IMG/VR virus record: IMGVR_UViG_2660238346_000010
DNA: 5,219 bases
Strand: one strand, 5' to 3'
From: a virus
Lineage: Duplodnaviria; Heunggongvirae; Uroviricota; Caudoviricetes
A program made the position numbers. Shown here in pieces: positions 3,001 to 5,219 of the stretch (positions are counted from its first letter, which is position 1; every line of letters begins with the position of its first letter).

Positions 3001-5219
3001 GATTTTACTGGATCAGGTTTGTGAATGCCGCAGGCGTTAAAGGGCCGTGGCACGCAGTGGCAGGCGTGGCAGCACAGACACAGATATCAGTTCAGGCGGT
3101 GATTGACCAGATAAAAGAAGAGGCGGCGAAGTCTCCCGTCATAGAAGAGCTTCGCAAGGAAATAAAAAACGCGCAGGGGCAGGCTGTAAAGGATGCTGCA
3201 ATTAAGACAACCGAAGTTGTGGGGACTCTCAGGGAAGAAACGACAAGAACGATTGGTGGTATTGAAACCCGCATTAGCACACTGGATTCGTCAACCAGTG
3301 AATCGCTTAATGAGGTCGACAAGCGCATCACTAAACTGGATAAAGAAGGCGGTGAGGCCTTCCTTGCGATGTGGTCAAAAAAAGCGGGAGTTGATGGCAT
3401 CACTGCGGGGATCGGGATTGTCGCCGGAAAAGACAGTGAAGGCAGGCCTGTAAGTCAGGTTGCAATTTCTGCGTCGCAGCTGTTTGTCTTTGACCCGAAC
3501 AACCCGGATAACACCGCCTATCCGTTTGCGGTATCAGGTGGCAAGGTCGTGATCCCGAAAGCGATGATTTATAACGCGGTGATTGAAACACTGGTGTCGC
3601 GGAAGGTTGTGGCAGATGAAGTAAAAGCCGGGGTAAGTATCACTTCGCCAGTTATCCGGAGTGCCGTTATTCAGAACGGAAACTTTCAGGTTGATTCTCA
3701 GGGTAACCTGAATATTGGTGGCCTTTTTAGTGTTACGTCGCAGGGGCAACTGACAATTCGTTACTCTAATCAGAATGTGGGGCTGGTGATCCGCAATGAT
3801 AAAATTGAAGTTTATGACCAGAACGGACGCCTGGCTGTTCGCATAGGCAGGTTAAGCTGAGCCGGAGGCTGACATTGGCAGAATATGGTTTTGCAATATA
3901 CAACAGAAATAATGTTAATGTTACGGGCGTGCTTACTCCCATATTTTTCCTGGACAGGTTTACGGCGGAGTCGGGATCAAAGACGTACACTAATAAACCC
4001 GACGGGAAAACATTGCAGGCAGTCTGTTCATTATTTCCGTGGAATAATGTATTTAAGGACCGGAAAGTACCGAAGATAACCATTAATGGCAATACGGTGA
4101 CGTGGTCGAATCTTGAACAGGGGATGGGGTCATATATTTATACATTCTGGGGGTGAGTTGTATGTATGGTTTAAGCATTACGAAACCAGATGGCAGCTTG
4201 TGGATAAGCCCGGGGTTTACGCCTCAGTGTCTGATCAATAAGGGAACTATTCCGGCGACTGAGAAGGCTTTTTTTAAAACGTCAATCCCGTCAGGAAAAA
4301 GTTGTTTTTTCTTTATCAGAACAGAGAAAAAGGCCGATGTTATGTACACGCATGAACAAATTGATGGATATCATGCCTTAAGGCTTCATCAAATTGTCAG
4401 GGGAACGAATCCCGGTGTTACGACTGTTTATGCTTTTGCGAATATGGTTACTCAACCTTCTGAGTATGGTATCGCCATGTATAACCCGTCGGGTGAGATG
4501 ATTTACCATGGCGAAATGATGCTGCTTGACGCGAAGTTAATACCAGTTGATATCAAGTTTGAGAAGGACCTTGGATATCCATGCGCAATTATGCCTGCAC
4601 TGGTTGGATATTATAACTGGAAACGAACACCTTATGACCGACCGATTTACACCACATCCACTGGTGCTACAGGAAATAAAATATATTCCTGTGAGCATTA
4701 TTCCGGTGGTGCAACATGGGATATCCGAAAGCCGTATATAGATAAAGTTCTGGTTATTAATTCCTCAATATATGATTAGCGTAAGAAAAACTTTAATAGT
4801 GTAAAACGAAAGCGTTCCTTTCAGACATCGCATCCTTTAATTCAGAGAAATACTTAAAATGAAAAGTATCATGAAATTTTTTGCGTGTGCAGTTCTGGTG
4901 ATGAGTTGCTTAACTGCACAGGTAAATGCAGCATCAGGCGATAGTACGGTATCTCTCGGGTTTGCACACATACGCTTCCCCGGGCTGAAGGATTTTGTTA
5001 GAGACGCGGGGTGATGCTGCCAACTTACTGATTTAGTGTATGATGGTGTTTTTGAGGTGCTCCAGTGGCTTCTGTTTCTATCAGCTGTCCCTCCTGTTCA
5101 GCTACTGACGGGGTGGTGCGTAACGGCAAAAGCACCGCCGGACATCAGCGCTATCTCTGCTCTCACTGCCGTAAAACATGGCAACTGCAGTTCACTTACA
5201 CCGCTTCTCAACCTGGTAC

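Follow-up and report, generated by a model that had tools for sequence, protein, structure and literature searches.

An IS1 element truncates the Ail/Lom-family gene of a Sepvirinae-type Escherichia coli prophage, probably by simple insertion

The DNA analysed here (one stretch of 5,219 nucleotides, referred to as the window) ends in a lom-like gene of the Ail/Lom outer membrane protein family, which breaks off after 151 nucleotides at the left end of an IS1 element. We consider it very probable that this allele arose by simple IS1 insertion with a 9-bp target duplication, and that it is a null allele, or pseudogene. The copy in the window is a remnant of an Ail/Lom-family gene and no functional member of the family. 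The event itself is ordinary, a gene disruption of an already known kind. By its sequence, the window comes from a Sepvirinae (933W/phi24B-like, Stx-type) prophage, of which it covers the late, accessory end. Its features are collected in Table 1.

Table 1. Features of the 5,219-nt window, with coordinates and the basis for each assignment.
Feature	Position	Strand	Basis or remark
YadA-anchor-type (trimeric autotransporter-like) adhesin gene, last 15 codons	1..48		ends ...GVNFEF, stop
156-aa protein	137..607		
60-aa ORF	607..789		
541-aa protein	970..2595		ORF open upstream to GTG at 892
422-aa tail-tip fibre protein	2592..3860	+	Pfam Phage_Tail_Tip PF09327; PHROG 496
93-aa protein, 'outer membrane protein'	3875..4156		PHROG 557
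205-aa membrane-associated moron protein	4162..4779	+	PHROG 425, E = 9e-80
Residual lom ORF, 51 codons and TGA	4859..5014	+	residues identical to residues 1-51 of the intact 245-aa protein
Putative Sec signal peptide, 24 residues, cut after VNA	4859..4930	+	by eye
Target sequence GAGACGCGG (9-bp direct repeat expected at far IS1 end)	5001..5009	+	repeated in L031 at 139..147
IS1 left end, nt 1-210 of 768, cut by window end	5010..5219	+	209/210 bases identical
IS1 left terminal inverted repeat, GGTGATGCTGCCAACTTACTGAT	5010..5032	+	identical to left end of IS1 in L006 and L002
Promoter-like site inside or beside the inverted repeat	5017..5044	+	consensus scan 9/12; not above chance for the region
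insA, 5' part, GTG start, 51 codons, runs off window	5065..5219	+	translation and Pfam

The residual lom reading frame is composite. lom supplies codons 1-50 and the opening base of codon 51, and the end of codon 51 together with the stop consists of bases of the IS1 inverted repeat. The TGA (5012..5014) corresponds to IS1 nt 3-5 and so falls within that repeat; the frame of 51 codons ending at such a stop, described in the preliminary account of this DNA, is read directly from the bases. Intact 738-bp Ail/Lom genes, such as L001 6080..6817 (E. coli E2855, WP_000836187.1) and L010 10698..11435, begin with the same 151 nt as 4859..5009 and encode the same first 51 residues. When the window is aligned to L001, homology spans 756 to 5010 with none beyond, and the match to intact lom breaks off at 5009/5010. 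The boundary is uncertain by one base, because the G at 5010 suits lom and IS1 alike. Across the junction the window reads ...GTTAGAGACGCGG/GGTGATGCTGCCAACTTACTGAT...; past this point the intact gene continues ...GCGGGTGTTTATAAC and the window ...GCGGGGTGATGCTGCC.

The sequence that replaces lom belongs to an IS1 of the IS1A/IS1R type (768 bp), as judged against an annotated IS1A-family copy in L002 and a complete 768-bp copy in L006. The likeness extends to the identical left inverted repeat, to the insA zinc ribbon coming first and to all bases present except one. The differences are that the window holds only nt 1-210 of the element and that it has a single synonymous change, a T at 5214 where both references have G. 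This T, synonymous in insA, is common to two related contigs (L018 and L020) and lies 6 nt short of the window end. In the full IS1 copy the left and right ends form an imperfect inverted repeat in which 18 of the first 23 bases match; we take the length of the terminal inverted repeat to be 23 bp. The peptide translated from 5065..5217 is recognised as the N-terminal zinc ribbon of InsA (PF03811 Zn_ribbon_InsA, 77.6 bits against a cut-off of 26.1). A promoter and terminator scan of the region returned nothing exceeding chance, and an Rfam search of the window gave no match. The promoter-like site at 5017..5044 presumably sits where the known insA promoter lies, an assumption drawn from published IS1 biology and not from the scan.

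The identity of the interrupted gene is established through its intact allele, a protein of 245 aa annotated in L001 as 'Ail/Lom family outer membrane beta-barrel protein'. It matches Pfam Ail_Lom (PF06316) over residues 90-245 with 102.7 bits (cut-off 23), with residues from about 40 to 90 lying outside that alignment, and PHROG 108 'Lom outer membrane protein' over its full length (E = 8e-71). Among solved structures (PDB, phmmer) it matches lambda Lom (9wso, E = 1.7e-22), Yersinia Ail (3qra, E = 4e-14) and OmpX (1orm, E = 1.6e-9). The C-terminus, ...GIGLKF, has the barrel end with its aromatic residue. These matches, together with the near-perfect agreement with IS1, bear out the earlier claim that IS1 truncates a Lom/Ail-family gene. 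For the stub taken alone the claimed similarity holds in part: the 51 residues match positions 1-41 of PHROG 108 Lom (E = 5e-6), but a Pfam profile search with the same 51 residues gave no match. A look-up of the exact 51-aa stub in protein records found none. By eye, MKSIMKFFACAVLVMSCLTAQVNA/AS resembles a signal peptide, with a basic n-region, a hydrophobic core and V-N-A ahead of the putative cut. This putative signal end aligns with the ARA/E of lambda Lom in a phmmer stretch that is non-significant (-1.7 bits).

Compared with its known relatives, the gene shares with lambda Lom and with Stx-phage Lom (phi24B CM18, Lyz12581Vzw) the accessory ('moron') slot 3' of the tail-fibre genes. It differs from lambda Lom in length (206 aa there, 245 aa here) and in that the window retains codons 1-51 only, before IS1. 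At the DNA level the intact allele and the 'Lom outer membrane protein' gene of NC_049917.1 are 99.7% identical, and the same identity is reached in 21 phage records in all, mostly Stx2a-converting phages. With the 8-stranded barrels Ail (Yersinia), OmpX and PagC it has in common the significant matches of the intact allele and the usual C-terminal ...GLKF. Unlike them, lom is here prophage-borne and longer, and the copy in the window is a pseudogene: it ends after 27 mature residues, and the complete 8-stranded barrel is absent from it.

The far side of IS1 lies outside the reach of the window, because all assemblies that carry the junction allele break inside IS1. The reciprocal junction is found in another data set. 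L031, an ENA metagenome contig (ERZ27246838, k141_36985), was reached via the 131-aa product that starts at Met115 (P0115). Its first 138 nt are the right end of IS1, in the orientation seen in the window, with 100% identity to the L006 copy. It then reads ...AAGTTGGAGTCATTACC / GAGACGCGG / GTGTTTATAACC..., so that GAGACGCGG stands at 139..147, directly 3' of the IS1 right end, and is the same sequence as window 5001..5009. What follows GAGACGCGG is GTGTTTATAACCGGG...; counting GAGACGCGG, lom nt 143-738 are present at 100% identity. Past the junction L031 contains the remaining 194 codons of lom, and the genes that follow are hok and those usually found downstream of it. The contig shares 99.8% identity with L014, L015 and L010 and belongs to the same prophage lineage as the window. 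IS1 typically duplicates 9 bp of its target. Target-site duplications are found with standard insertions, whereas events associated with a deletion lack them (PMC11708052). We conclude in favour of a simple insertion because L031 holds the reciprocal junction with the 9-bp direct repeat. The target duplication and the rest of the gene, which the preliminary description had proposed to look for past IS1, are accordingly both found, in a related contig and with a duplication of 9 bp. The remainder of the gene is longer than the roughly 120-150 codons foreseen there: 194 codons are missing, because the intact protein has 245 residues and not about 170-200.

We propose that IS1 transposed into the lom-like gene of an E. 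coli Sepvirinae (Stx-phage-type) prophage, entering between lom nt 151 and 152 (codon 51) in the orientation of lom, and that the 9-bp target GAGACGCGG was duplicated on entry. Translation of lom would now stop at the TGA in the inverted repeat, giving the putative 24-residue signal peptide and 27 mature residues, which would correspond roughly to the first beta-strand. No 8-stranded barrel would be possible, because the stub is far too short, and the stub is presumably without function. The other 194 codons would lie past the 768-bp element, lacking a signal peptide and any start codon ahead of Met91. We infer that the genome from which the window derives carries a right junction of the L031 type; L031 was assembled from another sample, a metagenome, and its junction might in principle go back to an independent insertion at the same site.

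The left junction is found in other genomes. The exact tail-tip protein of the window occurs on only 15 contigs, whose sources name E. coli, and this rare variant serves as a marker of the lineage carrying the IS1 allele. Ten contigs with the variant were fetched, and in half of them (5/10) the 41-nt junction is identical to that of the window. These five are independent E. coli draft assemblies: L016 (GCA_010686555.1), L017 (GCA_000936775.1, 100% identical to window 1..5180), L018 (GCA_000941535.1), L020 (GCA_000947375.1) and L021 (Logan ERR738833). The junction is not a product of chance, because the same 41 nt recur in all five. Every one of these contigs (5/5) ends within IS1, which suggests that the window is likewise a short-read contig end, broken at the IS1 repeat. 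Three sister contigs (L013-L015) have the rare tail-tip variant and differ from the window by 2-6 bases, with lom intact. Since lom is intact in such close relatives, the insertion is recent and derived. None of the complete E. coli RefSeq genomes has the junction, and an exact search for the 41 nt in GTDB representatives, IMG/VR and JGI metagenomes found it absent. The insertion is real and limited to a small clade.

An IS1-mediated adjacent deletion, or recombination between IS1 copies, would leave the same left junction while the rest of lom, possibly along with prophage genes further downstream, was lost or moved. The window, stopping 210 nt into IS1, ends before the far side at which the two outcomes would differ. 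There is also a precedent in this gene: in L002, IS1 joins a truncated tail-tip gene to lom nt 74, with about 1.4 kb gone. Moreover, the predicted right-junction proteins of the five left-junction assemblies are not on record. Seven contig-edge partial products of the right junction (9-bp duplication) are missing from the protein collection, as are four products predicted for an 8-bp duplication (one with a TTG start, three partial). These absent records may reflect pseudogenes without a protein entry or differences in gene calling. Two further kinds of marker were tried and set aside. The 155-aa product from Met91 (P0026), considered as a trace of the right junction, is on record for other alleles only, namely those with IS1 at nt 74-82, with a divergent IS1-like element or with frameshifts. 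The downstream proteins p421, p133, p148 and p218 are too common to be informative (291 to >1000 contigs each). Against a deletion stands L031, in which the reciprocal junction is present with a perfect 9-bp duplication in the same lineage at 99.8% identity; a deletion event would leave no duplication (PMC11708052). A deletion or rearrangement therefore seems to us unlikely, and simple insertion remains the preferred reading.

Two other explanations are far less credible. The window and the related contigs end in a multi-copy repeat, a place at which short-read assemblers misjoin, and the junction could on this account be chimeric, with reads that belong to a different IS1 copy attached to lom at the contig end. 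Such an artefact is hard to reconcile with a junction that is the same to the base in five assemblies (the Logan contig included), which come from separate projects and were made with different assemblers, and with a complementary junction bearing the 9-bp duplication in a sixth data set; we regard it as extremely improbable. It is just as hard to credit an effect of the allele beyond loss of the gene, whether through a secreted 27-residue peptide or through hok-region transcription driven or blocked by IS1. The starting point for such an effect would be expression of the gene: the Lom orthologue of phi24B is reported to be expressed in stable lysogens at a level similar to that seen during induction (PMC3342100), and transcription therefore probably still runs into IS1. 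The sequence, however, lends such an effect no support. The stub has no family-specific feature past the first strand, hok lies about 230 nt beyond lom in intact loci, and no promoter-like site was found except that in the IS1 inverted repeat.

The surroundings of lom place the window among Sepvirinae prophages. Positions 1..4780 are 97.5% identical to phage GER2 (Sepvirinae, Oslovirus), 756..5010 are 92.4% identical to many Stx2a-converting phages, and the gene order from tail fibre to lom is that of L001. GER2 has a divergent Ail-like allele in the lom slot. Over 4780..5010 the window shows 100% identity with lom of O104:H4, O157:H7 and other prophages, and for the Stx2a phages with a near-identical lom the identity in the tail genes is no more than about 92%. 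The combination of a GER2-like 1..4780 with a Stx2a-type lom therefore points to mosaicism, with the joint lying between the 205-aa gene and lom, near 4780. The order of the 205-aa gene relative to lom is the same as in intact loci. Some further observations concern the neighbouring genes. Loci related to the window encode a 355-503-aa protein with PF03895 where the window has the adhesin remnant at 1..48. Of the 862 positions of PHROG 511 'internal virion protein', the 541-aa protein matches only 319-859. GC content across 3900..5000 is 0.39-0.44, against about 0.52 in the tail genes, and this low-GC segment corresponds to three consecutive small envelope-associated accessory genes (PHROG 557, PHROG 425 and lom).

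Other broken alleles of lom exist. IS1 with a target duplication at nt 74-82 is present in L003 (10779..11547), L006 (10779..11547) and L024 (~9670..9803); the duplicated sequence is CATCAGGCG, equivalent to 4932..4940 in the window, and this site lies 69 bp upstream of that in the window. The precedent in L002 (6001..6768) is the right junction of this same allele, with the deletion reaching into the tail-tip gene. A second element occurs in L003 (~11891..13842) and L006 (~11891..13844) at lom nt 410-416, and in L003 the interval contains called IS21-type genes (rve and IstB). A divergent IS1-like element in the opposite orientation, with the end GGTAATGCTGCCAACTTACTGAT, is seen in L026 (1..52), L027 (1..52) and L032 (1..138). 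It adjoins lom near nt 155-167, with a target duplication at about nt 159-167. Three separate IS1-family sites (nt 74-82, 143-151 and ~159-167) therefore fall within about 90 bp of the 5' part of lom. The other IS1-type alleles are independent of that in the window, because the sites differ and one has the opposite orientation. In L023, L025, L028-L030 and L033-L037, lom carries 1-nt deletions or single substitutions, nonsense changes included. The deletions at nt 236, 267 and 335/337 are within or beside short runs of G or C, and copies changed by one nucleotide are split into ORFs of about 106-114 aa and of 131 or 155 aa. Some of these changes may be sequencing errors.

That lom is a preferred target of inactivation, either as a regional IS1 hot spot or through selection for lysogens that no longer make a surface protein expressed constitutively, is a speculative idea to which we give little weight. 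The claim of an IS1 hot spot was dropped: the disrupted alleles form a biased sample and are mute on frequency, because most were found by searching for truncated products. If selection were at work, loss of Lom would be favoured, for example, because the protein acts as a receptor or antigen.

Outside annotation the insertion has little significance. It accounts for short-read contigs of carrier strains ending at lom, and the allele is usable as a lineage marker of a small E. coli clade. For the lom gene of lambda, a link to adhesion has been described (PMC3430580, PMC3342100). For the lysogen, the IS1 allele takes away one prophage-encoded surface protein.
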